Shown here piece after piece: positions 6,361-56,397 of a DNA stretch of 64,000 nucleotides. Position 1 is the first letter of the stretch, and every line of letters starts with the position of its first letter. The translations under genes were made by a program, and so were the position numbers. The notes below the pieces were generated by a model that was given only the letters and a program-made list of their open reading frames with translations, was not told where the DNA came from and did not search any database. Source of the stretch: Flavobacteriales bacterium (lineage in GTDB: Bacteria; Bacteroidota; Bacteroidia; Palsa-965); NCBI GenBank assembly GCA_002737665.1, contig NSIF01000001.1:350-64349 (forward strand), written 5' to 3'.

Positions 6361-7776
6361 CTATTTTGTTTTTGCAAGTTTGCAATTGCCTGAAAAAGTT
6401 TGGCCTTCTACTTTTAGTGTATAAATTCCTGGTAGTAATTCTTCCGCAGGAACTTCGAGTATTGCTTTTCCATTCGGCATTTGTGATTTATTTTGAATTA
6501 CTAATCTCCCAGCATTATCAAAAATGGAGTATTGAATAGTTTGAGCAGTTGTTAGATTTATTGAAAGACAAAAATTAGTGTTAAATGGATTAGGGTATGC
6601 ATCAACGAAGTTATTGATATCAAAAAGTTGCTCGTTAGTACTTGCTATTGCAGCTGAAATATCTAAAGTATATAATCCATTTTGCATATCGGCAGCAAGC
6701 AAAATCCCACTTGGTAAAAAAGGATCAGCACCCCAGCAGCCATGGTAGGCCTGTGTATAATTGGGAAAATTAATTAAGGTGTCGGTGTCAAAGTATCCTG
6801 CCAAAACACAATTCGAAGGATTCGAAATGTTGTAAAGTTGAATACCATCTGTATAATTTGCAGCAATTAAAAAATCATTTCCTAAAATATACGGATTGTG
6901 TGGAGTATTTCCAGTGTGAGATCGAAATATCTGATTCATTGTTACATTTCCCATATTGGAAACATCCAATGATTTGATTCCCATCCCAACGGGCACCTCA
7001 TCCATAAAAATTAATGTTCTCCCATCTGATGATAAAAAACTACTGTGATTGTATCCTGATTCCGGATAATTAGTAAGTACTGCTAACTGGGTGAATTGCT
7101 GGTTGGTTGTACTATTGAATTTGTAAATTCCCAATCCGCCAAAACCACAGGATGCGTATACCGTATCATTACGTACAAACATATCGTGTACTTGTTGAAC
7201 CGAAGGATAGTCTTGATCAATTGTCCGCAATAGTGGTGGATTTATTGGGTTAATACTTAAATCGTAAACAGCCATTGGATAGTAAGTGTTATTGGAAAGA
7301 GTAACACTTCCACCATAAAGTTTGTCGCCATCAATAAAAATAGTATGACATTTTTCAAATAATGTGTTGTCATTTCGCACAACATGTACAGAGTCGGGTA
7401 GGTAGGACATATCTGCAATAATAAAACTATTAGGAGCATTGTCGTCACTTACGATATAGCAGTACTGGTGCCAAGTTTTAATTTCATGCCAAATTAAATT
7501 TCCATGTGTTGCGGGAATGTAATCGCAGGCAACGAGCGCTGTTGGATTGGTGACATCCACAAATTGAGTTCCTGTTGAAGTTCCTATAATTGCATATTCG
7601 CGGTTTGTTGTGGTGTCTTTCCAGCCACATACACCTTGGTACTTGATTCCATAAACAGGTTCAGCAGGTTGTGTTGGGTTGTTCCAATTTCCTAATAATG
7701 AAATATTTTGAGATTGATAATTTTGTGCTTGTAAAACAAATGGCGTGAGCATTAATAGTATTAGAATTTTTTTCAT
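6361..7776 (-). CDS. Secreted beta-propeller-like protein (choice-of-anchor-B / LVIVD-like N-terminal region) with a T9SS type-A C-terminal sorting domain.
   Basis: Signal peptide MKKILILLMLTPFVLQAQ. C-terminus YPNPFNTNFCLSINL...GIYTLKVEGQTFSGNCKLAKTK matches the type-A CTD pattern. The N-terminal domain assignment is tentative. Confidence 0.6.
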   Translation of the reverse strand: MKKILILLMLTPFVLQAQNYQSQNISLLGNWNNPTQPAEPVYGIKYQGVCGWKDTTTNREYAIIGTSTGTQFVDVTNPTALVACDYIPATHGNLIWHEIKTWHQYCYIVSDDNAPNSFIIADMSYLPDSVHVVRNDNTLFEKCHTIFIDGDKLYGGSVTLSNNTYYPMAVYDLSINPINPPLLRTIDQDYPSVQQVHDMFVRNDTVYASCGFGGLGIYKFNSTTNQQFTQLAVLTNYPESGYNHSSFLSSDGRTLIFMDEVPVGMGIKSLDVSNMGNVTMNQIFRSHTGNTPHNPYILGNDFLIAANYTDGIQLYNISNPSNCVLAGYFDTDTLINFPNYTQAYHGCWGADPFLPSGILLAADMQNGLYTLDISAAIASTNEQLFDINNFVDAYPNPFNTNFCLSINLTTAQTIQYSIFDNAGRLVIQNKSQMPNGKAILEVPAEELLPGIYTLKVEGQTFSGNCKLAKTK

Positions 7777-11856: not shown

Positions 11857-13305
11857 TTAAAATCTATAACCACACGTTACTACTACATTCACAACTTTTG
11901 AAGTGTTATTTACAGGATTGACTAAACTCTGATCGTAGAAATAGTAATTGCTTTTTTCTCTTGAGGTAATAATTCCAAGATCAATAAAAAGTAAATCTTT
12001 TGGTACACGATAGCCAAGCCCTCCAGTTAAATACAGTTTGCTGGAATTATTATTTACTCCTTCTGTGTATGGGCTTCCGTAATATGCAAAACCTGCTCTT
12101 AAAATAATCGGAAATACTCGAACCTCTGCTCCAACTCGAATAGTAGATGCTGTTTTGTATTTACTTTTTATATTCGCATTGGCTACTGAGAAGGCATAGC
12201 TCGATGATTTTAAACGAGCATCGGCATAATCTACCAGTTCATAGTCAGCCGATATTAATCCTAGTTTTCCAATTACAACACCAACGCTACCAAGCATTCG
12301 CATGGGAGTTCTAATGGAATAATTAAAACTTCCATCTTGTGCAATACTTTCTCTAGTTATTCCTCCAATTACCGATTGCATTTGAGCGCCATACGTGTCA
12401 GAAAGTTTTAGTAAGGTTGGTGTGTGAAATGCAAAGCCAATACGCAACATATCTATGGGTCTATATATAAATCCTATTTTTAAATTAAAACCTTTGCCTG
12501 TAGTTGTAAGGAATTGATCAAACTTAAAGTATTCAAAATTTGAAACGGTGTCATTTATTTCAGTTTCTGAGTAGGCGTTTACTTCTTCATATTTTACTTG
12601 CTGAATTCCCAAGGAAGCACCAACATAAAATTTGTTGGAGTAGTTTCCACCTATTCCAATTAGCCACTCTCCTAATCCTCCACGTATGTTGGAGTTTTTT
12701 TCTTGTGCCAAAAAATCTCCATCAGGAATTGTATCGGTATAATGTGATGAGTCGCCCGAAATTTGATTTAGTAAATAAGTATTCCATGCCAATCCTTCAT
12801 TGTAGCCATCAAGTGTGCTCGGTCCATTTCCTCCTGCCGTTTTTGCCCACGAATCCATCATTGATGTATAAGAGTTCCCTTTCATCGTTAGGTTGGTTTG
12901 GAATGAACCGTAGCGGTTGTAAATAATTCCAATTCCTGTTGTTTGCCAACCTTCTGCCAAAGTATTTTCTGTTTTGCCAGCAAGAACAATTCCGCAGTTA
13001 TCAACGCGCATATTAAATCGTGAATCGCTTGAACTCGTTTCATTGTAAACTGAGTTTACCTTCTGGTTGTAAAATGATGGCGTAAAACAAAATTCATTTT
13101 TACGATAAAATCCAAGCCCTGCTGGATTTGTTCCGATTGCTGACATATCAGCACCGAGTGCTCCAAACGCACCAGCCATTGCTGAATATCGAGCTGTGCC
13201 GCCAAAGCCAATTCTAGAATACCTTAATGCGTCTACTTCATTTTGTGCTACACAAGCACCATAAATTGCCAACACGGATAATCCGGTTAGAAAATAACGT
13301 CTCAT
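11857..13305 (-). CDS. Outer-membrane beta-barrel of the FadL/OmpP1/TodX-like superfamily (PorV/PorQ-like).
   Basis: Signal peptide. N-terminus IGFGGTARYSAMAGAFGALGADMSAIGTNPAGLGF resembles the FadL-family N-terminal hatch signature. C-terminal aromatic residues ...TCGYRF. Confidence 0.55.
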   Translation of the reverse strand: MRRYFLTGLSVLAIYGACVAQNEVDALRYSRIGFGGTARYSAMAGAFGALGADMSAIGTNPAGLGFYRKNEFCFTPSFYNQKVNSVYNETSSSDSRFNMRVDNCGIVLAGKTENTLAEGWQTTGIGIIYNRYGSFQTNLTMKGNSYTSMMDSWAKTAGGNGPSTLDGYNEGLAWNTYLLNQISGDSSHYTDTIPDGDFLAQEKNSNIRGGLGEWLIGIGGNYSNKFYVGASLGIQQVKYEEVNAYSETEINDTVSNFEYFKFDQFLTTTGKGFNLKIGFIYRPIDMLRIGFAFHTPTLLKLSDTYGAQMQSVIGGITRESIAQDGSFNYSIRTPMRMLGSVGVVIGKLGLISADYELVDYADARLKSSSYAFSVANANIKSKYKTASTIRVGAEVRVFPIILRAGFAYYGSPYTEGVNNNSSKLYLTGGLGYRVPKDLLFIDLGIITSREKSNYYFYDQSLVNPVNNTSKVVNVVVTCGYRF

Positions 13306-13319
13306 AATTATTAAATTAA

Positions 13320-14495
13320 TTATCGTGGTCGACTTGAAGTTCTACCACTATTTGAATTTCCTTGTGAAGGATTTGCTCTCACTGGAGTAGAAAATTCGGT
13401 ATTATTACCTCTAGAAGTCGAATTATTTATAGGATTTCTACTTGGACTGCTTGTGTTGGATGAAGGAGAATTTAAATTCATATTACTGGATGGCTTTTGT
13501 GTTGCGTCAATTGCAGTACCTTCATTATTAAATATTGGAGCAGGAGGTGTAATACGAGTATGGTCTAAATTAGTGTTGTTAGGTTGGTACTTTTCTGCGT
13601 CAATAGAAGGATAGTTCACACTTGGTTTGTCGAAATTATTTTTGACAGGAGGAATACCTACAATTTGGTTTATTTCTGCTCGCGTTGGATTTATAAGATT
13701 ATTTTCTTGAGCAATTTCGCTTGCAAATCGTTCTCCAAATGTTGGCCCGCCTGAACCCGATACGCGTCCATCTGAAGAGCTAGGGGTATTTCTTGGTCCA
13801 TAGTAATTACTGTTGTTGTCGAAACTATTGTAGTAGTAATTATTGTACCCATTATTCCCGTATCCGTTGTTATTGTATGGGTTATTACCAAAACTATTGT
13901 AACCGTATCCGTAATTTGAATTATTACCCCATGTATTCCAAGGATCGTAATAATTGCCCCAACTATTTCCCCATCCATTGTTATATCCTGTTCCCCAACT
14001 CCAACCATTATTCCAATTCCAATAAGAGCTTGGGCAATAGTTGTAGGCATAATAGGACGGGCCCCAGAATTGGTAACCATTGTAAATACTGCTACCGTAA
14101 TTATAAGGATTCTGGTTATAGAAGTAGGAGTTTGTGTAGTAATTGTCGTAGTAGCCGTAATTTTTTACGGGGTGATTAAATCGGCGAAGACGGGCAGCAT
14201 ACTCATCATCGTAATAATCATCATAGTTAAAATCTTCTTTATAATATTCGGATCCCTTATTTGCCCTCGCCGCTGCCGTTTCTTTTTCTAATATTAGTTG
14301 ATTTGCCTGCGCTTCCTCTTGTTTTTGCCTTGCAGCCAATCGAATTTGATCTGCTTTTTTATCTTTCTTTGCATCTTTTAGTGAATAATAGACATCATCT
14401 GAATTTTGCTGAGAGTTTACCTGTTTCATGCTAGTGCATGACGTAAAACCAAGTAAAAATGTGGCACCTAAACAAATAATTGGAAAGCATTTCAT
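13320..14495 (-). CDS. Lipoprotein with an extreme Y/N/G/W-rich low-complexity core and an S/T/N/P-rich tail.
   Basis: Lipobox ...LLGFTSC. Residues ~100-240 are almost exclusively Y, N, G, W, S (e.g. NYGYGYNSFGNNPYNNNGYGNNGYNNYYYNSF). A 14-bp gap to the upstream beta-barrel gene suggests one operon. Confidence 0.6.
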   Translation of the reverse strand: MKCFPIICLGATFLLGFTSCTSMKQVNSQQNSDDVYYSLKDAKKDKKADQIRLAARQKQEEAQANQLILEKETAAARANKGSEYYKEDFNYDDYYDDEYAARLRRFNHPVKNYGYYDNYYTNSYFYNQNPYNYGSSIYNGYQFWGPSYYAYNYCPSSYWNWNNGWSWGTGYNNGWGNSWGNYYDPWNTWGNNSNYGYGYNSFGNNPYNNNGYGNNGYNNYYYNSFDNNSNYYGPRNTPSSSDGRVSGSGGPTFGERFASEIAQENNLINPTRAEINQIVGIPPVKNNFDKPSVNYPSIDAEKYQPNNTNLDHTRITPPAPIFNNEGTAIDATQKPSSNMNLNSPSSNTSSPSRNPINNSTSRGNNTEFSTPVRANPSQGNSNSGRTSSRPR

Positions 14496-14626: not shown

Positions 14627-16102
14627 ATGGCCAAAGAACTTACCAAGCGCTCCACCGACTATTCCAAATGGTATAATGAACTTGTTGCAAATGCTGATTT
14701 AGCTGAACATTCTGCAGTAAAAGGTTGCATGGTCATTAAACCATACGGCTATGCAATTTGGGAAAATATGCAGGCAGTACTTGATAAAATGTTCAAGGAA
14801 ACAGGTCATGTGAATGCTTATTTTCCTTTATTCGTTCCTAAAAGTTTGTTTGAGGCAGAAGAAAAAAACGCAGCTGGTTTTGCGAAGGAGTGTGCTATTG
14901 TTACGCACTATCGCTTAAAGGCAAATCCAGATAAGCCAGGTTCGTTGATGGTTGATCCTGATTCTAAATTGGAAGAGGAGTTGATTGTTCGTCCAACTAG
15001 TGAAGCAATTATTTGGAAAACATACAAGGGCTGGATTCAGTCCTATCGTGACCTTCCATTGTTGATTAATCAATGGGCGAATGTGGTTCGTTGGGAAATG
15101 CGAACGCGTCTTTTTTTACGAACGACAGAATTTCTTTGGCAAGAGGGACACACAGCGCACGCTACACGTGAAGAGGCAATAGAAGAAACAGAAAAAATGT
15201 TAGGTGTGTATGCTGATTTTTCAGAAAATTTTCTTGCCATTCCTGTCTTACGCGGCATTAAATCGGCGAATGAACGCTTTGCCGGTGCCGAAGAAACTTA
15301 TTGTATTGAGGCCTTGATGCAAGATGGAAAAGCATTGCAGGCCGGAACATCGCATTTTCTTGGACAGAATTTTGCGAAAGCATTTGATGTTAAATTTTCA
15401 AATAAAGAAGGAAAGTTGGATTACGTTTGGGCTTCTTCCTGGGGTGTTTCAACACGATTGATGGGAGCACTTATTATGGCACATAGCGATGACCATGGTT
15501 TGATTATTCCTCCAAAAATGGCTCCGATTCAAGTTGTGATCGTTCCAATTTATAAAACGGATGAAGAACATGCAAAAATTGTAGAACATGTTTCCGTTTT
15601 GAAAAAAGAGTTAGAAGCACAAAATATCCGTGTTAAATTTGATGATCGTGACACACAGCGACCTGGATTTAAATTTGCGGAACACGAATTGCGTGGTGTG
15701 CCTGTTCGTTTGGGAATAGGACCAAAAGATTTAGAAAGTGGAAAAATTGAATTGGCTCGTCGTGATACTTTGACAAAGGAAAGTGTGGAACGAACTAATG
15801 TTGTAGCAATTGTTGTTGCATTGATGGTGGAAATTCAGACTTCAATGTTTAATTTAGCACTTCAACGAAGAGCGGAATCGACAAGCGTTGTCAATACTTG
15901 GGAAGAGTTTGAGGCAGCATTGGAGAAAGGAGGATTTATTTATGCGCATTGGGACGGAACACCTGAATCAGAACAGAAAATAAAAGAAAAGACGAAAGCT
16001 ACCATTCGTTGTATTCCAATTGATAATATAAAGGAAAATGGTAAGTGCATTCTTACTGGCAATGATTCTAAACAGCGAGTTGTATTTGCAAGGGCTTATT
16101 AG
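14627..16102 (+). CDS. proS: Proline--tRNA ligase (archaeal/eukaryote-like class II, as found in Bacteroidota).
   Basis: N-terminus [20 protein letters not shown]...[19 protein letters not shown]. 491 aa. Confidence 0.9.
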
Positions 16103-16135: not shown

Positions 16136-16828
16136 ATGATGGAAAATAAAACTAACGAAATTATTTTAGAATTACTGAAAGAAAAATCCTCCTTGAAGCA
16201 GGATGTTTTTTACAGTACACTTTCGGTTTTCAAGGAGTTGAAGGATGTGGTGAAAGAAGTTGTCAATGATTTAAAACCGAAGGTTGCTGCTATCGATAAA
16301 CGATTAATTATTAATTATAAAGATAAAACTGAATTTGAAATTGAATTGCAAGTTGCTGGCGATGTATTGATTTTTCAAATGCACACCAACGTTTTTGAAT
16401 TTGATATTTCGCATCAAATTTGGAAGACCTCTTATGTAAAAGAGCAACCAAGCAATTCATTTTGTGGTGTAATTAATATTTATAATTTTCTTGCCGATTC
16501 ATTTAAATATAATCGCAGTAACGATTTAGGTTACTTAGTTGCCAGAATTTTTCAGAATAGAGAGCATCATTATTTTGTGGAGGGTAAACGGCAGCTTGGG
16601 TTTTTGTACAACGATTTTTCAAATGCATTAATGAATCGGGCAGAATTGAAGAAAATTGTTGAGTCTGCTGTTGTTTATTGCCTCAGTTTCGATTTATTTA
16701 CGCCGCCTTTTGAGGAAGTGCGGGTGGTTAGTGTAGGGCAAACGGAGCAGCAAAACTTTTTAATGTCTGTAAAAACGGGCAAAAGGTTGGGTTTTAGATT
16801 TCAAACCGATACCGACGAATTGGATTAA
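16136..16828 (+). CDS. Hypothetical protein, 230 aa, with no recognisable motif.
   Basis: Clean ORF in a tight gene context, but no signal peptide or motif that I recognise. Confidence 0.45.
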   Translation: MMENKTNEIILELLKEKSSLKQDVFYSTLSVFKELKDVVKEVVNDLKPKVAAIDKRLIINYKDKTEFEIELQVAGDVLIFQMHTNVFEFDISHQIWKTSYVKEQPSNSFCGVINIYNFLADSFKYNRSNDLGYLVARIFQNREHHYFVEGKRQLGFLYNDFSNALMNRAELKKIVESAVVYCLSFDLFTPPFEEVRVVSVGQTEQQNFLMSVKTGKRLGFRFQTDTDELD

Positions 16829-16910: not shown

Positions 16911-16983
16911 GGCCCGTTCGTCTAGGGGTTAGGACAGCAGATTTTCATTCTGTAAACACGAGTTCGATTCTCGTACGGGCTAC
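16911..16983 (+). tRNA. tRNA-Glu (anticodon UUC).
   Basis: Manual cloverleaf fold. Acceptor GGCCCGT/ACGGGCT, D-stem GTCT/GGAC, anticodon stem GCAGA/TCTGT with loop TTTTCAT (U33, TTC at 34-36, A37), T-arm ACGAG-TTCGATT-CTCGT, discriminator A. Confidence 0.85.
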
Positions 16984-32180: not shown

Positions 32181-35100
32181 ATGAAAAACAAATTTTCGCT
32201 TGCACTAACTTCTATTATTGTTGTTACCCTTGTAGTATTCACCGCATTTATTGGTTTTAACCAATCAAAATCTATTTATAAACCTGCTGCAAAAGTTGAA
32301 TTTAAAACTTTAGCTGAGGACGGTGAGTCGGAAGGTTTCCGCGGAGCATCTGAATGGTTATTTAACCGTTTGAAGAATCAGGTTTCTGGTGAGATAGATG
32401 AAACTGAAGCAATTCGAATGCAGGCGTTAGCGTTTCAGTCTATTGCTACATCAAATACACAAAGAAACGGTAACCCTTCTTCAGTTGCTGCAACACAATG
32501 GACAGAGCTAGGTCCTGATAATGTTGGTGGCCGCACTCGTGCAGTACTTTTTGATAATTTGGATCCAACTCATAAACACATGTGGGCTGGTGGTGTAACT
32601 GGAGGACTTTGGGAATCTAATGATGCAGCAGCAACTTGGCACCGTTGTGCAGGTTATTTTGCTCTGCCAGATGCAGTTTCGACTGTTGTTACCATTGCTC
32701 AAGCTCCGAATGGAGATTTATATGTTGGTACTGGAGAGGGAAATTTTTATTTTCTCGCAGGTACAGGAGTAGCAGGCTTTACAGGAAATGGAATTTTCAA
32801 ATCAACTGACGATGGCATAACATGGACATCTTTAACTTCAACTCAACCAACAAGTCAAAATACAATTTCTAGTGCTTGGATTGGAGTGAATAAAATTCAA
32901 GTCGATCCTAACAATTCAAATCATATTTACGCTGGTACAAATAAAGGGCTTAAAATTTCTAATGATGCTGGCAATACTTGGGTAAGTGCAGTTGGGCCAT
33001 CAGTAAATGGTTCTTCAACAGATGTTCAAGTTTCTAATGGTCGTGTCATTGCTATCGTTTCAGATAAGCCATGGCTTTCTGTTGATAATGGTGCAACATT
33101 TACTAATGTAAGTCTAACAGGTTCTGGTTGGGCAAGCACAGCTTCGAGTCGTGTTACAATTTCAATTGCACCTTCCGATGAAAATTTTGTTTATGCATTT
33201 TTAGCTGCAACGACTGGAGCAATGCAAGGAGTTTATGTTTCTACTAATGGTGGTGTAAATTGGACTATGGTTTGTGGTGCAGGAAATGCACAATTTGATC
33301 CATTCGGTGGTAATGGTCAAGGAGATTACGATAATATTGTTTCTGTAGATCCAACTAATAAATACCGTGCAATTTTTGGTGGCACTGCATTGTATGAGTT
33401 TCGTATTGATTCAACACAAAATCCGGTTGCCGGACAATGGACTCAGATTGCTTCTGAATTCCCTGCAAGCCCATATAATCCTTTTTATGTTCACTCCGAT
33501 AAACATTCCATCACTTGGCATCCAAGTCAGGTTGGAATATTTTATGTTGGATGTGATGGAGGAATTTTTAGGTCAAACTTGCATCCTACTTATGGTTTAA
33601 CATTCATTCCAATGAATTCTGGATATAACATTACACAATGTTATTCTATAGCTATTGAAAATACGGTTGCTGCAAAAAACCAAGCAATGGCTGGTACCCA
33701 AGATAACGGAACGCACTTTATTGATGGTTCTGGTAATACTGCTATGTCATCGATTGCTACAGGGGGTGGTGACGGTGGTTGGTGTGATTTTTCATTTTTA
33801 AATCCATTAGCAACATTTCAAACAGTTTATTATGGTTCATTGTCACGCTCCAATAATCGTGGTTCAGGTTCCTCTTCGTTTTATGATTTAAGAATTGATC
33901 CTGCTACGAATAGTCCAGTAGGCGAGAACCCATCTTTTGCAAGTTTTGTTACTCCAATTAGATTATGGGAAAGCACTACTGATATTTTGACAGGAGATTC
34001 TATTTCATTTACTAATTCAATGGCTGCTCAAAATAAAGATGTCACCAACGGAACTTCTGCAACTTATTCTGGAACGCTTACTGTACCAATGCCAATTGTT
34101 TCGCCTGCTGCAGTAGTAGTATTGAATACTTTACTGTTTGTTGCAGGTGCTGATACTATTACTTGTACTTCAGGTGGAGTATTAGGAGGTGATGGTACTG
34201 GTAACGTAAATGGGACAACAGGAGCATACCAGCTTACATTTAATACTTTACCTGCGGCAAATATTGTTTTAAAAGCATTCTTTTATGTTCAATATGGAGC
34301 AGGAACAATATTTACATTAAATAGTAATGTAGCAGGAAAATTTATTAATCACACTGTTAGTAGCATTGTTAATCCAGATGACGTTGTTAAAGTGCAGGAT
34401 GTGATTCAATCTCATCTTGCAGTTGGATTTACAAGCAATAATGGAGTTTATATAACACGTCGACCGCTAGATTTTTCTACAACACCATTATGGATAAAAG
34501 TTGCAGGAACAAATTCGGCGCCAGATTTATTTTCAGGACAAGCAAATTGTTTAGCTTGGTCACCAAACGGGGATCATTTATTTGTTGGAACTTCAAGTGG
34601 TTTAGTTTTTCGTATTAGCAATCTTGCATCTGTAACTGATTCAGCTAATGGAGATGTCGATTATGGAACTGCTCCAAATCCAACTTGTCAAGTTGTTTGC
34701 ACACGCATAGGTAATTTTTCTAGTAGGGAAATAACTTCAATTGATGTAAATCCAAATAATCCAGATCAAGTGATTGTTTGTCTTGGTAATTATTCCAATA
34801 CACAATATGTTTATTTGTCAACCAATGCAACAACTGCAACTGGAATTACTGGAACTTTTGCTGACAAAACTGGAAATCTTGATAACATTGGAGGCGTTCC
34901 TTGCTTTACTGTAACGTTTGATAAGTATGTTGCGAATAGAGCTCTCGTTGGAACGGAGCATGGTATTTATGAAACAAGCAGCATTACAGCTGCATCTGTA
35001 TCGTGGGCTCCTGCAATGACCGGACTTGATTATTGTCCTGTAGATATGATTCGTCAACAACGTTGGGAGCCATGGCAAGTTCCTAATGCTGGATGTTTTT

Positions 35101-35468
35101 ACATTGGTACACATGGTCGAGGAATGTGGAGAGATGATTCATCATTCCAAGCGCCAACTTCTATTAATAACCCATCAAACCCATATTTCTCTAACGGAAA
35201 TGGTTCAAATAGTGACTTAAGAGTGTTTCCGAACCCGGTTGTTGATAACTCTAATGTGACCTTTAATCTTGATAAAAAAGGCACTGCTACAGTAAAAATC
35301 TACGATCTTACAGGTAAAGTTGTTTTCGAAAATGACTATGAAAATCTAAGTTTAGGAACCAATACAATTGAATTTGAAACAAGTGAAATGTTAAAGGGAA
35401 TTTACATCATCACTGTGCTACAAGCCAATAAACGTATAGGAAGTGGACGTTTCATCAAAATGAATTAG
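32181..35468 (+). CDS. Large secreted BNR/Asp-box repeat protein (sortilin/VPS10- or GH74-like propellers) with a T9SS type-A C-terminal sorting domain.
   Basis: Multiple S-x-D-x-G-x-T-W Asp-boxes (STDDGITW, SNDAGNTW, SVDNGATF, STNGGVNW). C-terminal VFPNPVVDNSNVTFNL...GIYIITV CTD. Confidence 0.7.
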   Translation: MKNKFSLALTSIIVVTLVVFTAFIGFNQSKSIYKPAAKVEFKTLAEDGESEGFRGASEWLFNRLKNQVSGEIDETEAIRMQALAFQSIATSNTQRNGNPSSVAATQWTELGPDNVGGRTRAVLFDNLDPTHKHMWAGGVTGGLWESNDAAATWHRCAGYFALPDAVSTVVTIAQAPNGDLYVGTGEGNFYFLAGTGVAGFTGNGIFKSTDDGITWTSLTSTQPTSQNTISSAWIGVNKIQVDPNNSNHIYAGTNKGLKISNDAGNTWVSAVGPSVNGSSTDVQVSNGRVIAIVSDKPWLSVDNGATFTNVSLTGSGWASTASSRVTISIAPSDENFVYAFLAATTGAMQGVYVSTNGGVNWTMVCGAGNAQFDPFGGNGQGDYDNIVSVDPTNKYRAIFGGTALYEFRIDSTQNPVAGQWTQIASEFPASPYNPFYVHSDKHSITWHPSQVGIFYVGCDGGIFRSNLHPTYGLTFIPMNSGYNITQCYSIAIENTVAAKNQAMAGTQDNGTHFIDGSGNTAMSSIATGGGDGGWCDFSFLNPLATFQTVYYGSLSRSNNRGSGSSSFYDLRIDPATNSPVGENPSFASFVTPIRLWESTTDILTGDSISFTNSMAAQNKDVTNGTSATYSGTLTVPMPIVSPAAVVVLNTLLFVAGADTITCTSGGVLGGDGTGNVNGTTGAYQLTFNTLPAANIVLKAFFYVQYGAGTIFTLNSNVAGKFINHTVSSIVNPDDVVKVQDVIQSHLAVGFTSNNGVYITRRPLDFSTTPLWIKVAGTNSAPDLFSGQANCLAWSPNGDHLFVGTSSGLVFRISNLASVTDSANGDVDYGTAPNPTCQVVCTRIGNFSSREITSIDVNPNNPDQVIVCLGNYSNTQYVYLSTNATTATGITGTFADKTGNLDNIGGVPCFTVTFDKYVANRALVGTEHGIYETSSITAASVSWAPAMTGLDYCPVDMIRQQRWEPWQVPNAGCFYIGTHGRGMWRDDSSFQAPTSINNPSNPYFSNGNGSNSDLRVFPNPVVDNSNVTFNLDKKGTATVKIYDLTGKVVFENDYENLSLGTNTIEFETSEMLKGIYIITVLQANKRIGSGRFIKMN

Positions 35469-50961: not shown

Positions 50962-53900
50962 TTATCGAATTAAAGAAACGTGACCAATTAAGTTATGTCT
51001 TCGACTTAAACTATCCATCGCTGTTATTTTCCAAACATAAACATCTACTTGGCATTCATTAGAACGACCTTGAACACAGCCATTCCAACCTTTAGCAAGG
51101 TCTGTTGTATTGAAAATTAGATTACCCCAACGATCGAAAATCCATATTTCGAAACGATCTGGATCTATTCCAAAGCTTTGTGATAAAAACAAATCATTAT
51201 CACCATCTCCATTTGGAGTGAAAGCGTTTGGTACATAAAGAGTAACATCGGGGTCTATGCAAATTTGATGTGTAATACTATTTGCACATCCATTAGTACT
51301 GGTAACTGTTAATACTACATCAAAGCAACCTGGTCCACCATAATCATACGTTGGGTTCTGTAAAAACGAACCTGCGTTTAACAAATCTCCAAACGACCAA
51401 CTCCAAGTATTTGCATTTATTGAAAGATCTGTAAAAATAATTACTGGATTTAATTCGGTCGTTGGTTGAGGTGAGGAAGAGAATTCTGCAATAGGGACAG
51501 AATCAACTGTAATGTAATTTATAATTGTATCTGTGAAGACGCAACCACTAGCAGTCTTTACTGATAGTATAACTGTAAATACACCAGCATTTAAATAGCA
51601 ATGTGTTGGGTTTTGAGACGTGGAAACATCACCATCGCCAAAATCCCAATCCCATCCGACAATAGATCCAGATGAAACTGATGAGAGATCAGAAAAATTT
51701 ACACACAATGGCGCGCATCCTGCAAGTGTATCACCGACAAATGCTGCAATTGGATTTGGATAAACAAATAATACAACTGTGGCAGTAGCTGTACATAAAT
51801 TAGCGTCTGTTACATTTACTGTGTAATTCTGAGTTGCAGCAGGAGTTAAAATTTGTACAGGTCCAACTAATGGCCCAGGATTCCATCCATATGTGTAAGC
51901 TGGAGTTCCTCCCAGTGCAGTTCCTGTTATTGTAATAGATTGACCTACGCAAATAGCAGGCGGACTCGCAATTCCTGTAACTGTTAAGAGTGGAGGTTGT
52001 GTGATGGTTAAATTAACGATTGAAGTACATCCTGCAGAATCAGTTACAACAACAGTACAAGCACCAGCAATTAGATTAGTTGCTGAGTTTGTAGTACTAG
52101 ATGAACAATTCCAAGAGTAGCTTATAAGGCCTGTGCCTCCGGTTACATTAATTGATGCCGTTCCATTTGTTCCTCCAAAACAAGAAACAGGTGTTAAGTT
52201 TCCTGCTGTTGCAGTCACACCTGGAATATTGTTGATTGTTACGGAGGCAGTATCATCGCATCCGTTTGCATCTGTCACCACTACAAAATAATTTCCTGCG
52301 ACTACGTTTGTTAGATTTGGCCCCAATGACATAGGGAAATACCAAATTGGAGTTAATGTTCCAGTTCCACCAGAAAACACAGAAGTAGCAGCGCCATCAG
52401 GAAGGTTACAATGTGCATCAATCGCTGTTGCCGTTACAACAACCGCTGATGGTTCGGTAACAGTTGTTGTTGAAGTTGCAGTACAACCATTCAAGTCAGT
52501 AACAATAACAGTATAATTTCCAGCACAACTATTAGAACAGTTTGCTGTGATGCATCCACTGCTCCATGCAAATGAATAACCAGGTGTTCCTCCTTGGGGA
52601 ATAGCCACTACTTGACCATTGCATGCACCAAAGCAGGTAGCGTTTGTTGCTGCTGAACTAGTGCTTAGTAGTGTTGGTTGTGAAATAGTAAATGATTGTG
52701 TTAATGTACAACTATTTAAATCTGTTATAAGGCATGAGTAGACACCAGCACATAGTCCAGTAGCTGTTGGGTTAATACCACCTGACGGAGACCATAAATA
52801 GGTATATCCGGGAGTTCCACCGGAAACAGCAACTGTTGCGCTTCCATTACAAATTGAATTACATGTTAAATTAATTTGTGATTGAATACTTGTTAAAGCT
52901 AAGGGTTGCGTAATTAATACAGTTGTTGTAGAAGTGCATAAATTAAAGTCGGTAATTGTACATGTGTAACTTCCTATGCACAAACCAGTAGCTGTGGTAT
53001 TTGTTCCACCACTTGGTGCCCATGAGTAAGTATAAGGAGGTACACCACTTGATCCAACCACGGTTGCAGTTCCATCGCAAAAGCTGTTACAGGTAACGTT
53101 CGTACTGTTTAAAAGTGTTACTGTTGGTGATGCAGCATTTGTAACGGTAACGGTAGTGATATAAGTACATAAATTAAAATCTGTAATTACGCATGTGTAA
53201 ATTCCTGCAAGTAAATTTATTGCTGTTAATGTTGTTTGGTTGGATGGAGTCCAAAGTATCGAGTAGGGTGGAACACCTCCACTTGGATTAACAGTTGCCG
53301 ATCCATTTGCGTTACCACATGTTGTTCCAACAGATGAAGTGGTAGCAGTTATAGCAGACGGTTGTGTTATTGTGAACGATCTTGTTAAAGTGCATCCTAA
53401 TGGAGAACTTATTGTACAGGTATAAGTTCCTGCACATAAGCCAATGGCAGTAGGAGCTGTTCCACCTGATGGCGCCCAAGCATAAGTATAAATACCTGTT
53501 CCTCCAGCTGCAACTACTGTTGCCGTTCCGATGCACACGCCATTGCAAGATACGTTAACTTGAGATTGGGTTGCTGTAATTTGTGGAGGTTGTGTAATTG
53601 TAAATAATTGTGTTATAAAACAACCTGTAGGTGAACTTATTGTGCAGGTATAGTTTCCAGCGCACAATCCAATTGCCGTAGCGGCATTTCCACCTGATGG
53701 TGCCCAAGCGTAGGTATAGTTACCTGTCCCACCAGCTGCAATAACTGTAGCTGTTCCAGCACATACGCCATTGCACGTGAGGTTAACTTGTGATTGAGTG
53801 GCTGTAATTTGTGGAGGTTGAGTAATTATAAATGATTGTGTTATAAAACAACCATTTGGTGAGCTGATGGTACAGGTGTAGGTTCCGGCACACAATCCAA

Positions 53901-56397
53901 TTGCCGTTGCTGCATTTCCGCCAGTAGGTGCCCAAGCATAGGTGTAAATTCCTGTTCCGCCTGCGGCCACAACCGTAGCTGTGCCATTACAAACACCATT
54001 ACACGTAACATCAACTTGCGATTGGGTAGCTGTAATTTGTGGAGGTTCTGTGATTGTGAATGTTTGTGTTATAAAACAATTTACAGGAGAACTTATTGTA
54101 CACGTGTATGTTCCGGCACACAAGCCGGTGGCAGTAGCAGCAGTTCCTCCAGAAGGTGCCCATGCATAAGTGTAAATTCCATTTCCACCACTTGCTGTAA
54201 CGGTAGCTATTCCCGTACAACCACCAAAACAAGTAACGTTTGTTTGAGTAGGTATTGCTACGATTAGTGGTGCCTGTGTAATTGTAAATATTTGATTTAC
54301 AATACAATTAATAGGAGAACTAACAGTACACGTATATGTTCCTGCGCATAAACCAGTTGCACTTGCTGCCGTTCCTCCTGAGGGTGCCCATAAATATGTA
54401 AACGTTCCGTTACCACCCGACGCTACAACTGCTGCACTTCCAGTACATCCTCCAAAACAATCTATATTTATTTGAGAAGGTACGACTGTAATGGGTGGAG
54501 GTTGTGTAATTGTAAAGGTTTGCGTAATTGAACATCCTAATGGCGAACTAATAGTACAGGTGTAGTTTCCTGCGCACAATCCGGTTGCAGCGGATGCTGT
54601 TCCACCAGTTGGTGACCATAAATAAGTAAATGTGCCATTTCCACCAGATGCAACAACATTAGCGGAACCCTGACATTGTCCATTGCAGTCAAGATCTATT
54701 TGGTGAGGGATTGCTACAATTGGAGGAGGTTCTGTGATTGTGAATGTTTGTGTTATAAAACAATTTACAGGTGAACTAATTGTACAAGTATATGTTCCAG
54801 CACAAAGTCCAGTCGCAGTGGCAGCTGTTCCTCCAGATGGCGCCCAAGCGTAGGTATAGATCCCTGTTCCACCAGACGCAATAACAGTAGCAGTTCCATT
54901 ACAAACCCCGTTACAGTTTGCGTTTACTTGTGATTGTGTTGCGGTGATTACTGGCGACTGAGTAATTGTTACAATACTTGTATCTATGCATCCATTGAGG
55001 TCTGTTACAGTGAGTGTATAAGATCCTGCACAAAGGGCGGTGGCATTATTTACGTTACCTACTGTTGTGTTTGCAACTATAGGCGCCCACACAAACGTGT
55101 AAGGGCTTGTTCCACCAAGTGCTGTATTTGTTGTGGCACCAGTGCAACCCCCATTGCAAATAACATTTATTTGATTGCCTGTAAGAGCCAACGGACTGAA
55201 GGATTGAGCAACTACAACTGAATCTATTCCTATAACGCAACCTCCATTACCTGTAACTGTTACCGTGTAGGTGCCAGGACATAAACCCGTAGCAGTAGCC
55301 GCTGTTCCACCTGAAGGTGCCCAAGCGTAGGTGTAGGGAGCTGTTGCATTTGTTACTGATGTAACTGTTGCTGTACCATTACAATTTGTGCAAACTGCAC
55401 TTGTATTGCTGGTAGTAAGTATCATATTAGAAAGTGGGCATTGGGTGCATGTTGTTTTATAGTACAACCCAATCATAGAGACGTTGTAGCAATCATTGGG
55501 TGCATAAAACGCATAGTTCACTGAATTTTGAGCATTCGTTAGTGAAGTGGTCACTTGAGCATAGTTCCACCAATTTGGTGAAAACGGCGCATTAATGCTG
55601 TTCATTGTACAGGTCTGTCCACCCACATTGCATTGCATATCACCCATTAAACAAAATGCAATTGCGTTTGGTTGATTTACAGTTTGGCATGCTGAAAAAT
55701 TATTTACCGCGCGTGTTGTACCGCCCCCAAGCATTACTACTGCTCCGTCGTGAATTACAATTGTACCTGCATAATTTACAGTGGGATCACTGTAAATTAC
55801 GAATAAGGTTGCCCCATCCATATCATTACCAGAGGTGGGTGGGTTGGTCATTAATCCACTGATATTATAGGTGCCATTTCCTCCAATGACCGATGTGACA
55901 TCGGCTCTGTAGGTGTGGGAACCTGAATAGCCCCAGCATTTATCTGCTGCTGAGCCAACCAGCAGTACTGGAATATTTGCATTACCAAACGGACCAGTTA
56001 TTACAGCTGTTTGTGCTGCACCGTTTCCAGAACCCTCTGCCCAAAGGAATGCTTTTTCAATAACGGCACATGCTGGTAAACCACTGATTACATAAGCCAT
56101 TGGTTGGTTAGGACTAGCAGGAGGGCAAGTTGCACCAAATCTTTTACCTACTTTTTTAGTAACCTGTTTGAAGTTTAGTCCACATTTGGTGAAATTGTAG
56201 ATTTGTCCTAATGAACTATTCCCATTTTGTGGCGTAGGTTCCGGTGCTAAACGTAAATTAAATTGATTTGAAGAAAAACTACAAGCGCCAGGAATCCCGG
56301 TACTATCATATGAGGCACGAACAATTGCTTGACTAAATGAAATAGTTGGAGTTGCTAAGAAAAAAAGGAAACATAAAATTTTTAGCAATCTTTTCAT
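50962..56397 (-). CDS. Giant cell-surface adhesin-like protein (1811 aa). It has a novel N-terminal domain, about 17 SprB repeats, a PKD domain, and a T9SS type-B (gliding-motility-associated) C-terminal domain.
   Basis: Signal peptide. ~77-aa repeats with the C..C.G.ATV...GG..PYTY.W.P SprB signature. PKD segment ...CAPLCVNFSDLS...NPTHCY. C-terminal TLYVPNAFTPNGDGDNDLF...WGNLIF...VYVW gliding CTD. Confidence 0.8.
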   Translation of the reverse strand: MKRLLKILCFLFFLATPTISFSQAIVRASYDSTGIPGACSFSSNQFNLRLAPEPTPQNGNSSLGQIYNFTKCGLNFKQVTKKVGKRFGATCPPASPNQPMAYVISGLPACAVIEKAFLWAEGSGNGAAQTAVITGPFGNANIPVLLVGSAADKCWGYSGSHTYRADVTSVIGGNGTYNISGLMTNPPTSGNDMDGATLFVIYSDPTVNYAGTIVIHDGAVVMLGGGTTRAVNNFSACQTVNQPNAIAFCLMGDMQCNVGGQTCTMNSINAPFSPNWWNYAQVTTSLTNAQNSVNYAFYAPNDCYNVSMIGLYYKTTCTQCPLSNMILTTSNTSAVCTNCNGTATVTSVTNATAPYTYAWAPSGGTAATATGLCPGTYTVTVTGNGGCVIGIDSVVVAQSFSPLALTGNQINVICNGGCTGATTNTALGGTSPYTFVWAPIVANTTVGNVNNATALCAGSYTLTVTDLNGCIDTSIVTITQSPVITATQSQVNANCNGVCNGTATVIASGGTGIYTYAWAPSGGTAATATGLCAGTYTCTISSPVNCFITQTFTITEPPPIVAIPHQIDLDCNGQCQGSANVVASGGNGTFTYLWSPTGGTASAATGLCAGNYTCTISSPLGCSITQTFTITQPPPITVVPSQINIDCFGGCTGSAAVVASGGNGTFTYLWAPSGGTAASATGLCAGTYTCTVSSPINCIVNQIFTITQAPLIVAIPTQTNVTCFGGCTGIATVTASGGNGIYTYAWAPSGGTAATATGLCAGTYTCTISSPVNCFITQTFTITEPPQITATQSQVDVTCNGVCNGTATVVAAGGTGIYTYAWAPTGGNAATAIGLCAGTYTCTISSPNGCFITQSFIITQPPQITATQSQVNLTCNGVCAGTATVIAAGGTGNYTYAWAPSGGNAATAIGLCAGNYTCTISSPTGCFITQLFTITQPPQITATQSQVNVSCNGVCIGTATVVAAGGTGIYTYAWAPSGGTAPTAIGLCAGTYTCTISSPLGCTLTRSFTITQPSAITATTSSVGTTCGNANGSATVNPSGGVPPYSILWTPSNQTTLTAINLLAGIYTCVITDFNLCTYITTVTVTNAASPTVTLLNSTNVTCNSFCDGTATVVGSSGVPPYTYSWAPSGGTNTTATGLCIGSYTCTITDFNLCTSTTTVLITQPLALTSIQSQINLTCNSICNGSATVAVSGGTPGYTYLWSPSGGINPTATGLCAGVYSCLITDLNSCTLTQSFTISQPTLLSTSSAATNATCFGACNGQVVAIPQGGTPGYSFAWSSGCITANCSNSCAGNYTVIVTDLNGCTATSTTTVTEPSAVVVTATAIDAHCNLPDGAATSVFSGGTGTLTPIWYFPMSLGPNLTNVVAGNYFVVVTDANGCDDTASVTINNIPGVTATAGNLTPVSCFGGTNGTASINVTGGTGLISYSWNCSSSTTNSATNLIAGACTVVVTDSAGCTSIVNLTITQPPLLTVTGIASPPAICVGQSITITGTALGGTPAYTYGWNPGPLVGPVQILTPAATQNYTVNVTDANLCTATATVVLFVYPNPIAAFVGDTLAGCAPLCVNFSDLSSVSSGSIVGWDWDFGDGDVSTSQNPTHCYLNAGVFTVILSVKTASGCVFTDTIINYITVDSVPIAEFSSSPQPTTELNPVIIFTDLSINANTWSWSFGDLLNAGSFLQNPTYDYGGPGCFDVVLTVTSTNGCANSITHQICIDPDVTLYVPNAFTPNGDGDNDLFLSQSFGIDPDRFEIWIFDRWGNLIFNTTDLAKGWNGCVQGRSNECQVDVYVWKITAMDSLSRRHNLIGHVSLIR
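53330..54950 (-). repeat. Seven tandem, near-identical 231-bp coding repeats (SprB-repeat units) inside the giant adhesin gene.
   Basis: Units ITATQSQVN...TFTITEPP recur. Units 1 and 4 share a 47-aa identical stretch and at least 44 nt of identical DNA (ggttctgtgattgtgaatgtttgtgttataaaacaatttacagg at ~54045 and ~54727). Confidence 0.7.

Follow-up and report, generated by a model that had tools for sequence, protein, structure and literature searches.

To our knowledge, the classical channels FadL, TodX and TbuX work without a dedicated lipoprotein partner. Pairs of a FadL-type barrel and a lipoprotein are known as BamG/BamH and BamG2/BamH2, the latter encoded in one operon. BamG has a conserved N-terminal extension of 10-12 aa that threads the lateral opening, and BamH is a surface lipoprotein with an acidic export signal and a folded domain. 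Curli (CsgA/CsgG) and Fap (FapC/FapF) operons combine an Asn/Gly-rich biased protein with an outer-membrane barrel; in both, the subunit is a beta-solenoid of imperfect repeats that is SPI-secreted and has a dedicated pore (CsgG or FapF). In Flavobacterium johnsoniae, the gene order Fjoh_4939 (Proline--tRNA ligase), Fjoh_4940 (SPII lipoprotein) and Fjoh_4941 (FadL/TodX OMP) is found (PMC12045153, supplement). Both Fjoh_4940 and Fjoh_4941 were detected in outer-membrane fractions, and upon TamL depletion they went up 2.6-fold and 5.6-fold, respectively. The authors of the TamL study suggested a functional link between the two and classed Fjoh_4940 as periplasm-facing (PMC12045153). Fjoh_4941 is a 55-kDa OMP, the level of which falls upon BamG depletion (PMC12611786, supplement). 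Fjoh_4941, BamG (Fjoh_1412) and BamG2 (fjoh_1686) are three separate genes in F. johnsoniae.

We analyzed a 64,000-nt stretch of DNA from a Flavobacteriales bacterium (the window), in which a tyrosine-rich lipoprotein gene lies directly upstream of a barrel gene. The features referred to below are the following.

11857 to 13305, minus strand: barrel gene, 482 aa, FadL superfamily, outer-membrane (ORF list)
13096 to 13245, minus strand: mature N-terminus and hatch (plug) of the barrel, residues 21-70 (conservation; model)
13120 to 13128, minus strand: NPA motif of the barrel, N60-P61-A62 (conservation)
13306 to 13319, minus strand: 14-nt intergenic spacer, with the lipoprotein gene upstream of the barrel gene (sequence)
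13320 to 14495, minus strand: lipoprotein gene, 391 aa, tyrosine-rich, outer-membrane (ORF list; homologue searches)
13323 to 13640, minus strand: hypervariable S/T/N/P tail, residues 286-391, with the basic C-terminus RPR (column consensus; C-terminal tripeptides)
13659 to 13739, minus strand: short predicted helix-turn-helix, residues 253-279 (AlphaFold2)
13776 to 13841, minus strand: conserved core 2, residues 219-240 (column conservation)
13842 to 14000, minus strand: G/Y/N/W low-complexity segment of variable length, residues 166-218 (composition; occupancy)
14001 to 14246, minus strand: Tyr-rich core 1, residues 84-165 (column conservation)
14262 to 14381, minus strand: predicted charged K/E/Q/A helix, residues 39-78 (AlphaFold2)
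14385 to 14399, minus strand: DDVYY motif, residues 33-37, located 10-13 residues past the lipid-anchor Cys (conservation; spacing)
14436 to 14495, minus strand: signal peptide and lipobox, residues 1-20, LLGFTS-C20 (FTSC, Cys20) (Cys conservation; lipobox pattern)
14627 to 16102, plus strand: proS (prolyl-tRNA synthetase), divergent neighbor (Pfam families; adjacency in related loci)

An earlier reading made from the sequence only had given the same coordinates, shared strand and 14-nt separation for the two genes, and these match the ORF list and the sequence. A terminator scan of the spacer detected no terminator-like site between the genes, which are probably cotranscribed. Scanning the locus for Rfam families, promoters and terminators returned only sub-threshold or chance-level matches, and the strict Bacteroidetes promoter pattern was without a match upstream of the operon. 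The surrounding genes are housekeeping genes and give no hint of a substrate.

The window and F. johnsoniae share the order of a divergent proS, an SPII lipoprotein and a FadL/TodX-family OMP of approximately 55 kDa. When six tryptic peptides of Fjoh_4941 were compared to the barrel, one reached z = 4 (SGLISLDYSIK versus GLISADYEL), a weak similarity, and the others were weak. Based on gene order, size and this one weak peptide similarity, Fjoh_4940/4941 is probably the counterpart of the pair. By contrast, uncultured Bacteroidia MAGs were the source of all best matches listed for the family in the window, and the best matches listed in three homologue searches, one of them seeded with the barrel of a "Flavobacteriaceae" MAG, included no named isolate. 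The passing remark on Fjoh_4940/4941 (PMC12045153) was the sole mention that we found in the literature, in agreement with the sequence-only reading, which had not recognized the pair as a described system.

Synteny across other Bacteroidota revealed that the pair is kept. In 77 of 80 related loci from different species, the barrel gene came directly after the lipoprotein gene and had the same orientation; the remaining three stop at a contig edge. Across these loci the identity of the barrel was 30-69%, and proS was divergently upstream in 74 of them, as well as in locus L085. The gap between the two genes was typically 2-185 nt, with a median of approximately 35 nt (78 related loci). Two more distant loci have the pair as well; there, the partner has 539-553 aa and the same motifs. 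Furthermore, lipoproteins and barrels had correlated pairwise distances (r = 0.93). With ProRS controlled for, the partial correlation was 0.85, a value which none of 2,000 permutations reached; the roughly fourfold slower evolution of ProRS may have inflated it. An apparent lipoprotein-barrel fusion at locus L053 was not real; it was a scaffold gap of Ns. We conclude that the lipoprotein and barrel genes form a genuine two-gene module of the Bacteroidota outer membrane.

The composition of the lipoprotein is as extreme as first noticed: Y, N, G and W make up 68% of its best 140-aa stretch, compared to 34% for the second-ranking ORF, which is the barrel itself, and to a median of 23% for all 38 ORFs in the window with a length of 200 aa or more. 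Tyr accounts for 10.2% of the protein (median, 3.4%). The layout described from the sequence was also recovered, with a lipobox, a charged K/E/Q/A segment (residues 39-80), a Y/N/G/W stretch (81-240) and an S/T/N/P tail (286-391). At the DNA level, the only tandem repeats were two very short ones, and the stretch is thus not a recent repeat expansion. Nor is it a lineage-specific insertion, which was checked as a counter-case: the unusual composition was common to all homologues examined. Pfam, NCBIfam and PDB sequence searches with the lipoprotein gave no true match, and Pfam and NCBIfam searches with members of its family gave only spurious low-complexity matches (Pfam Cwf15, Extensin), plus a single JGI "RcnB" label.

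The elements of the lipoprotein are conserved to very different degrees. At least 90% of the 118 aligned sequences have Cys20; a Cys is present upstream of a DD[VILA][YF] motif in 118 of 120 homologues, and the strict lipobox pattern was matched in 92 of the 120. DDVYY has two invariant residues, D33 and Y36, and at least 90% of the 118 sequences retain D34, the spacing from the Cys being 12 (45 sequences), 13 (43), 11 (15) or 10 residues (13). The following helix is predicted with a pLDDT of 83-92 across most of its length. Its sequence is weakly conserved (0.34-0.49), shortened or swapped for other sequence in some homologues, and it is probably a rigid spacer. The best-conserved part of the protein is residues 91-160, with a column consensus of 0.67-0.95 and approximately 20 invariant positions among the 118 sequences; core 1 follows the pattern YY..F.YDDYYD.EYA.RLRRF...GYYDNYYTNSY.YN.NPY.YG.S.YNGY.FWGPSY, with aromatic residues at alternating positions. 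Core 2 (NYYYNSFD.NS.YYGPR) contains the invariant residues Y221, N223 and D226 and the residues N228, S229, Y232, G233, P234 and R235, which are at least 90% conserved, and its motif is also present in the distant 539-553-aa members. Taken together, the conservation of residues 91-160 and 221-240 is position-specific (0.67-0.95; approximately 22 invariant columns).

Truly low-complexity sequence is confined to residues 166-218, which are 89% Y/N/G/W/S, have an occupancy of 0.47-0.91 and differ in length among homologues. Further downstream, AlphaFold2 predicted helices at 253-264 and 272-279 (pLDDT 84-93), the sequence of which is weakly conserved. The column consensus of the tail (286-391) is 0.07-0.47; nevertheless, its last residue is 97% conserved, and 89 of 120 homologues end in RPR, the remainder in PRR, RKR, KPR or PRK. 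As judged from the alignment, the Tyr-rich core is a strictly conserved motif region hidden behind a "prion-like" composition. Its pLDDT was only 42-59, and thus no autonomous fold is predicted. A segment that is conserved yet unfolded as an AlphaFold2 monomer shows a pattern typical of regions that become ordered only on a partner.

In Bacteroidota, the signal for export of lipoproteins to the surface consists of at least two acidic residues just after the lipidated Cys (PMC12578637). At positions Cys+1 to Cys+5, 94 of 118 family members have no D or E, 24 have one, and none has two or more. Because this acidic signal is absent in all 118 members, the lipoprotein probably faces the periplasm and is off the cell surface, in line with the classification of Fjoh_4940 in the TamL study (PMC12045153). 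Of the dedicated export or anchor module with a surface cargo envisaged in the sequence-only reading, the dedicated pairing was supported (77 of 80 loci), and the surface cargo and the export were not.

The barrel reached the threshold of the Pfam family Toluene_X (FadL/TodX, PF03349) marginally (29.8 bits; threshold, 29.7), and many of its homologues carry a precomputed PF03349 match. With the NCBIfam model PorV_fam (NF033709) it scored 27 bits and did not reach the cut-off of 90; the match to the PorV_fam/FadL N-terminal profile spans residues 37-100. Since the Toluene_X threshold was just reached and the PorV_fam cut-off failed, its initial description as FadL/PorV-like is correct in the FadL part and weak in the PorV part; an identity as PorV was rejected on these bits and on the structure comparison. 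In the model, 14 strands are plugged by an N-terminal hatch, as is characteristic of the FadL family, with short helices ahead of the first strand. In FadL channels, a kink in strand 3 creates a lateral opening; the third strand of the model is broken at residues 135-136 (DSSP string), and a large extra insertion is present at about residues 146-198. The N-terminus holds a conserved QNE.DALRYS tail. Among 108 sequences, R28, Y29, R39, N60 and P61 are invariant, and Q21, N22, D25, L27 and A62 are at least 90% conserved. A PDB sequence search with the N-terminal 91 aa returned nothing useful. Compared to the classical channels (PDB 1T16, 3DWO and 3BRZ), the barrel showed 11-16% identity and differed by the insertion and by a longer, strictly conserved N-terminal tail, which we take to be approximately 7 residues longer before NPA than that of E. 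coli FadL. Neither the FadL fold nor the NPA motif is proof of transport, because BamG and PorV, which are FadL-fold barrels of Bacteroidota, have non-transport roles.

Considering its composition, the lipoprotein might be a surface prion-like or amyloid protein for which the barrel is the dedicated exporter or anchor, as in curli and Fap; this was the sequence-only reading. The extreme Y/N/G/W content, the core without a predicted fold, the tight operon linkage to a barrel and an S/T/P-rich tail resembling those of many surface proteins are consistent with it. Like a prion-like domain, the lipoprotein has a strong compositional bias, but it does not keep its composition with positions left free; the position-specific conservation of residues 91-160 is unlike that of a drifting low-complexity region. 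Furthermore, there are no meaningful amyloid-type imperfect repeats in the lipoprotein, AlphaFold2 predicted neither beta structure in its core nor a beta-solenoid, and the surface-export signal is missing. The curli and Fap traits named above are thus not found here, and the lipid anchor and the type of barrel also led us to discard the amyloid or prion reading, which we regard as very improbable. Neither the amyloid nor the export readings are supported. Even more improbable is a PorV/PorQ-type T9SS shuttle with the lipoprotein as a T9SS accessory: the organism does encode T9SS cargo (Por_Secre_tail, CHU_C, SprB repeats) and the barrel has the weak N-terminal PorV_fam match, but its score is far from the cut-off and the lipoprotein has no T9SS C-terminal domain.

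Two further explanations place the lipoprotein in the periplasm. It could be mainly an envelope tether, the core of which binds peptidoglycan or another glycan while the Pro-rich tail crosses the periplasm. Through the barrel, it would then tie the outer membrane to the inner membrane or the cell wall, and would have no part in transport. Sugars are commonly bound by aromatic- and Asn-rich surfaces. The order of lipid anchor, rigid charged helix, aromatic-rich core, long Pro/Ser/Thr tail and basic end suits a tether, as do the TonB-like KP/EP-type repeats in the tails of some homologues and the upregulation of the probable counterpart under envelope stress. We nevertheless consider a tether unlikely, since none of the known peptidoglycan-binding domains in Pfam (OmpA_C, LysM, SPOR) was matched and a FadL-type barrel with intact transport motifs as the specific partner is left unexplained. 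The pair could also be an accessory or alternative BAM unit, with a BamG-like scaffold barrel and a lipoprotein that acts from the periplasm on BamA or client OMPs, e.g., as an aromatic beta-signal mimic like the BamP loop. The known BamG/BamH and BamG2/BamH2 pairs offer a precedent, the mature N-terminal tail of the window barrel is highly conserved, like that of BamG (PMC12578637), the EL3 loop of Bacteroidota BamA has the same Tyr/Gly/Asn bias, and the alternation of aromatic residues in the core as well as the response of the probable counterpart to TamL depletion, an envelope-biogenesis stress, would fit. However, the identity of the barrel to BamG-BamH and BamG2-BamH2 structures (PDB 9HJ3, 9HIV, 9HJM and 9N2D) was 12-17%, no BamG chain in the PDB was matched by a 37- or a 108-sequence barrel profile, even at E ≤ 10, and the barrel is approximately 60-70 aa longer than BamG and BamG2. 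An identity as BamG or BamG2 was rejected at the sequence level, orthology to the BamG proteins Bt4367, Fjoh_1412 and PgBamG included, and the F. johnsoniae locus tags differ too. In addition, only BamA, D, G, H, M and P were present in the BAM complex purified from F. johnsoniae, Fjoh_4941 has the behavior of a BAM client, and, in contrast to BamH, the lipoprotein has neither the surface-export signal (118 members) nor a folded two-domain architecture with a carbohydrate-binding-like domain (AlphaFold2). A BAM unit therefore appears rather unlikely to us.

The explanation that we favor, with moderate confidence, is that the barrel is a channel of the FadL type and the lipoprotein its dedicated, periplasm-facing partner, and that the two function in the traffic of hydrophobic molecules or in outer-membrane homeostasis. 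Both proteins would be exported by Sec, and the lipoprotein would be lipidated at Cys20 and kept periplasm-facing, with its anchor in the inner leaflet of that membrane's lipid bilayer, the outer membrane. From there it may dock on the barrel, and possibly also on a second partner, via three conserved elements: DDVYY at 10-13 residues from the anchor, the Tyr-rich core, and the basic RPR that ends the long flexible tail. The barrel, which probably keeps the transport hallmarks of its family (N-terminal hatch with NPA, predicted break in strand 3), would let hydrophobic molecules such as fatty acids or lipid-like compounds pass by lateral diffusion of the FadL type. The aromatic-rich lipoprotein might gate the channel, receive the cargo or couple the channel to the periplasm, and by this the module would contribute to outer-membrane lipid homeostasis. 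More tentatively, the lipoprotein could be a largely disordered, periplasm-spanning partner that folds onto the FadL-type channel and contacts a second envelope component with its C-terminus. It would then connect the transit of hydrophobic molecules or lipids across the outer membrane with the periplasm or inner membrane, and would join the homeostasis response to TamL depletion. If true, such a disordered channel partner would be a previously unrecognized system of Bacteroidota, and the crossing of the periplasm by FadL substrates would become testable. The function is directly testable, because the probable counterpart Fjoh_4940/4941 responds to TamL loss in the genetically tractable F. johnsoniae, and it may bear on outer-membrane lipid homeostasis.

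The lipoprotein family, for which we found no model, structure or literature, has an unusual design in that a strictly conserved Tyr-rich segment is predicted to lack a fold of its own; its "prion-like" composition invites a misreading that the conservation by position corrects. A word-indexed search detected 312 homologues at E ≤ 1e-3. Among representatives of 50%-identity clusters, an exhaustive profile search matched 1,960 at E ≤ 1e-3, 993 at E ≤ 1e-10 and 367 at E ≤ 1e-30. The pair is thus widespread, with approximately 1,000 such clusters at E ≤ 1e-10, and a motif scan detected 313 species genomes.

The sequence-only reading had placed a lipoprotein gene 14 nt ahead of a barrel gene on the same strand. 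Both ORFs were found at this distance, arranged in tandem on the minus strand, and a terminator scan of the locus revealed no terminator-like site between them. The locus is laid out as follows.

11857-13305, minus strand: barrel gene, 482 aa
13320-14495, minus strand: lipoprotein gene, 391 aa
14627-16102, plus strand: proS, divergent from the lipoprotein gene
16136-16828, plus strand: 230-aa ORF directly downstream of proS
16911-16982, plus strand: tRNA gene (Rfam RF00005, 61 bits)

The 230-aa ORF had no Pfam match. An equal-sized ORF is present at the same place in near-identical loci (L001-L003) and in a distant locus (L085); the ORF may belong to the conserved surroundings of the proS-lipoprotein-barrel cluster. 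The tRNA gene sits between this ORF and the ribosomal protein genes rpsF-rpsR-rplI.

The lipoprotein and the barrel are co-conserved, as expected for the proposed pair. Related loci from different species, 80 in all, were compared: in 77, the barrel gene is located directly downstream of the lipoprotein gene on the same strand, and in the other three the contig stops first. The pair is kept at barrel identities as low as 30%, with a short intergenic gap (median, ~35 nt). Furthermore, the pairwise distances of the two proteins were correlated (r=0.93), and the partial correlation controlling for ProRS was 0.85, a value reached by 0 of 2,000 permutations, although this control is imperfect because the evolutionary rate of ProRS is about fourfold lower. 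Two more distant loci, found via barrel homologues, harbor an upstream protein of 539 to 553 aa that shares the lipoprotein's motifs and likewise has a basic C-terminus; one of them has proS upstream.

Among the 80 loci, 74 have a divergent proS upstream. It was absent within 6 kb upstream of the pair in L014 and L015, which belong to a clade of lipoproteins starting with MKKLTLLALSG, and was also missing upstream in L034, where the contig ends ahead of any barrel gene. Thus, linkage to proS is frequent, not obligatory. An apparent 942-aa lipoprotein-barrel fusion (locus L053, 3968-6796) was rejected as a scaffold-gap artefact, in which Ns between the genes were translated as XX. In locus L059 (7231-7880), the barrel match begins at query residue 165, following a 538-nt gap after the lipoprotein gene; this barrel gene may be frameshifted or disrupted, or the assembly may be in error.

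The lipoprotein has the parts claimed for it, namely a signal peptide with lipobox Cys20, a charged K/E/Q/A segment, a Tyr/Asn/Gly/Trp-rich stretch, and an S/T/N/P tail. Its extreme composition was borne out: Y+N+G+W make up 68% of its best 140-aa stretch, a clear outlier compared to 34% in the next ORF of the window and a median of 23% in the 38 window ORFs of at least 200 aa. No DNA tandem repeats were detected beneath the Tyr/Asn/Gly/Trp-rich stretch, and no Pfam model, NCBIfam model, or PDB sequence matched the protein. The protein nevertheless has many relatives in sequence. A word-indexed search retrieved 312 homologues, the best 120 of which are 226 to 495 aa long (nearly all 380 to 495 aa), come almost all from Bacteroidota metagenome bins, and almost all lack functional annotation; labels on a few of these 120, among them "RcnB" and a serine/threonine kinase name, are evidently spurious. 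An exhaustive profile search of 1.84 billion cluster representatives yielded 1,960 matches at E≤1e-3, 993 at E≤1e-10, and 367 at E≤1e-30, and a motif scan detected relatives in 313 species genomes. With family means of 11.8% Tyr and 36.5% Y+N+G+W (120 proteins), the biased composition is a trait of the whole family.

Conservation was measured on a 118-sequence alignment. Residues 91-160 showed a column consensus of 0.67-0.95, with about 20 invariant residues in the motif YDDYYD.EYA.RLRRF ... GYYDNYYTNSY.YN.NPY.YG.S.YNGY.FWGPSY, and residues 221-240 (YYNSFD.NS.YYGPR) were conserved to a similar degree. Variation in length and sequence is confined to residues 166-218, which retain the G/Y/N/W bias. 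Thus, the "low-complexity" stretch is mostly conserved position by position, and the Tyr-rich core is a motif region. The lipobox Cys is also conserved, a DD[VIL]Y motif follows it at a fixed spacing of 10 to 13 residues, and a basic C-terminus is kept at the end of the hypervariable tail (RPR in 89 of 120 sequences).

AlphaFold2 modeling of the lipoprotein on the 118-sequence alignment gave a mean pLDDT of 57.5. Only a charged helix (residues 39-78) and a short helix-turn-helix (253-279) were confident, and the conserved Tyr-rich core mostly had a pLDDT of 35-60. That the core is strictly conserved but has no autonomous fold suggests that it orders on a partner. PMC12578637 takes at least two acidic residues in the five positions following the Cys as the mark of surface lipoproteins in Bacteroidota. 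None of the 118 family members has this export signal, which predicts a periplasm-facing lipoprotein, contrary to the surface location first proposed.

The barrel had been called FadL/PorV-like. The FadL part of this assignment held, since the Pfam model Toluene_X was marginally passed (29.8 bits; threshold, 29.7) and the fold agrees; the PorV part did not, since NCBIfam PorV_fam scored 27 bits against a cut-off of 90. An AlphaFold2 model based on 108 sequences was confident (pLDDT, 90.5; pTM, 0.84) and showed a helical hatch at the N-terminus followed by the barrel. Structural comparison scored 29.9 for E. coli FadL (1T16), 29.6 for P. gingivalis BamG, 29.5 for F. johnsoniae BamG, 29.0 for TodX, 28.1 for a P. 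aeruginosa FadL homologue, 27.9 for B. thetaiotaomicron BamG, 24.2 for PorV, and 11.8 for FapF. In Foldseek, BtBamG was the top hit (E 4.5e-17), with FadL homologues close behind. Identity to the compared FadL, TodX, BamG, PorV, and FapF structures was 10-17%. The barrel family profiles did not match any BamG chain at the sequence level and matched, weakly, only the P. aeruginosa FadL homologue. The structural closeness to both FadL and BamG and the missing BamG sequence match make the barrel a separate FadL-superfamily clade, about equidistant from transport FadLs and BamG. The NPA hatch motif is kept (N60 and P61 are invariant), the third strand of the modeled barrel is interrupted, and the mature N-terminus QNE.DALRYS is strongly conserved. 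Bacteroidota prefer Gln after signal peptidase I cleavage, and the invariant N-terminal Gln agrees with this.

We favor, at slightly better than even confidence, a FadL-type channel with a dedicated periplasm-facing lipoprotein partner that would become ordered only on binding; such a module would act in hydrophobic-molecule traffic or outer-membrane lipid homeostasis. The nearest structural precedent is the Bacteroidota BAM complex, which contains the FadL-like barrel BamG bound to the surface lipoprotein BamH, and BamG2/BamH2 is a paralogous pair encoded in an operon (PMC12578637, PMC12611786; 2025). In F. johnsoniae, BamG is Fjoh_1412 and BamG2/BamH2 are fjoh_1686/fjoh_1685. Apart from these genes, the same genome shows the window's gene order in Fjoh_4939, which encodes Proline--tRNA ligase, Fjoh_4940, whose SPII lipoprotein product has no known function and was classed as facing the periplasm, and Fjoh_4941, which encodes a FadL/TodX OMP (PMC12045153 supplement). 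Fjoh_4940 was likened to the lipoprotein by gene order; of six tryptic peptides of Fjoh_4941 compared with the barrel, one aligned at z=4. Both proteins were present in outer-membrane fractions, TamL depletion increased Fjoh_4940 2.6-fold and Fjoh_4941 5.6-fold, and the authors remarked on a possible functional link between them (PMC12045153). The level of Fjoh_4941, a 55-kDa OMP, drops on BamG depletion (PMC12611786 supplement), as expected for a BAM client, not a subunit. Beyond the TamL and BamG-depletion studies, no mention of Fjoh_4940/4941 was found in the searched literature. That the pair is a BAM-associated accessory unit is unlikely, and a role of the lipoprotein as an envelope tether has a similarly low probability.

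The window also encodes proteins with type IX secretion (T9SS) features.

6361-7776, minus strand: Por_Secre_tail protein
32181-35468, plus strand: Por_Secre_tail protein
50962-56397, minus strand: 1811-aa gene, adjoining the next
56487-58904, minus strand: 805-aa gene

The two adjacent genes encode SprB repeats, PKD domains, and a CHU_C type-B T9SS signal. Together with the Por_Secre_tail proteins, they point to a type IX secretion or gliding repertoire in this organism. A T9SS role of the barrel similar to that of PorV is nevertheless the least probable explanation. The surface prion-like or amyloid lipoprotein with a dedicated export barrel, as originally suggested by the composition, is very unlikely: the core is conserved position by position, repeats are absent, the protein is lipid anchored, and the barrel is of a different type. 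GC content rises to 0.42-0.43 at 52-56 kb, which is where the SprB-repeat gene lies.

Within a known superfamily, the barrel forms a new clade. Pairing of a barrel with a lipoprotein is already familiar in Bacteroidota; the lipoprotein family and this specific pairing are undescribed, except for one passing remark.

Residues 159-167 of the lipoprotein (13995-14021, minus strand) read WNWNNGWSW, similar to the darobactin core WNWSKSF, a mimic of the BamA beta-signal. The family as a whole does not keep this exact motif (consensus, GWGWG), so the likeness is probably a coincidence. Extracellular loop 3 of Bacteroidota BamA, which is disordered, 38 residues long, Tyr/Gly/Asn-rich, and of unknown function (PMC12578637), shares its bias with the variable segment of the lipoprotein (13842-14000). 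By analogy, Tyr/Gly/Asn-rich segments in the Bacteroidota envelope may have a property in common.
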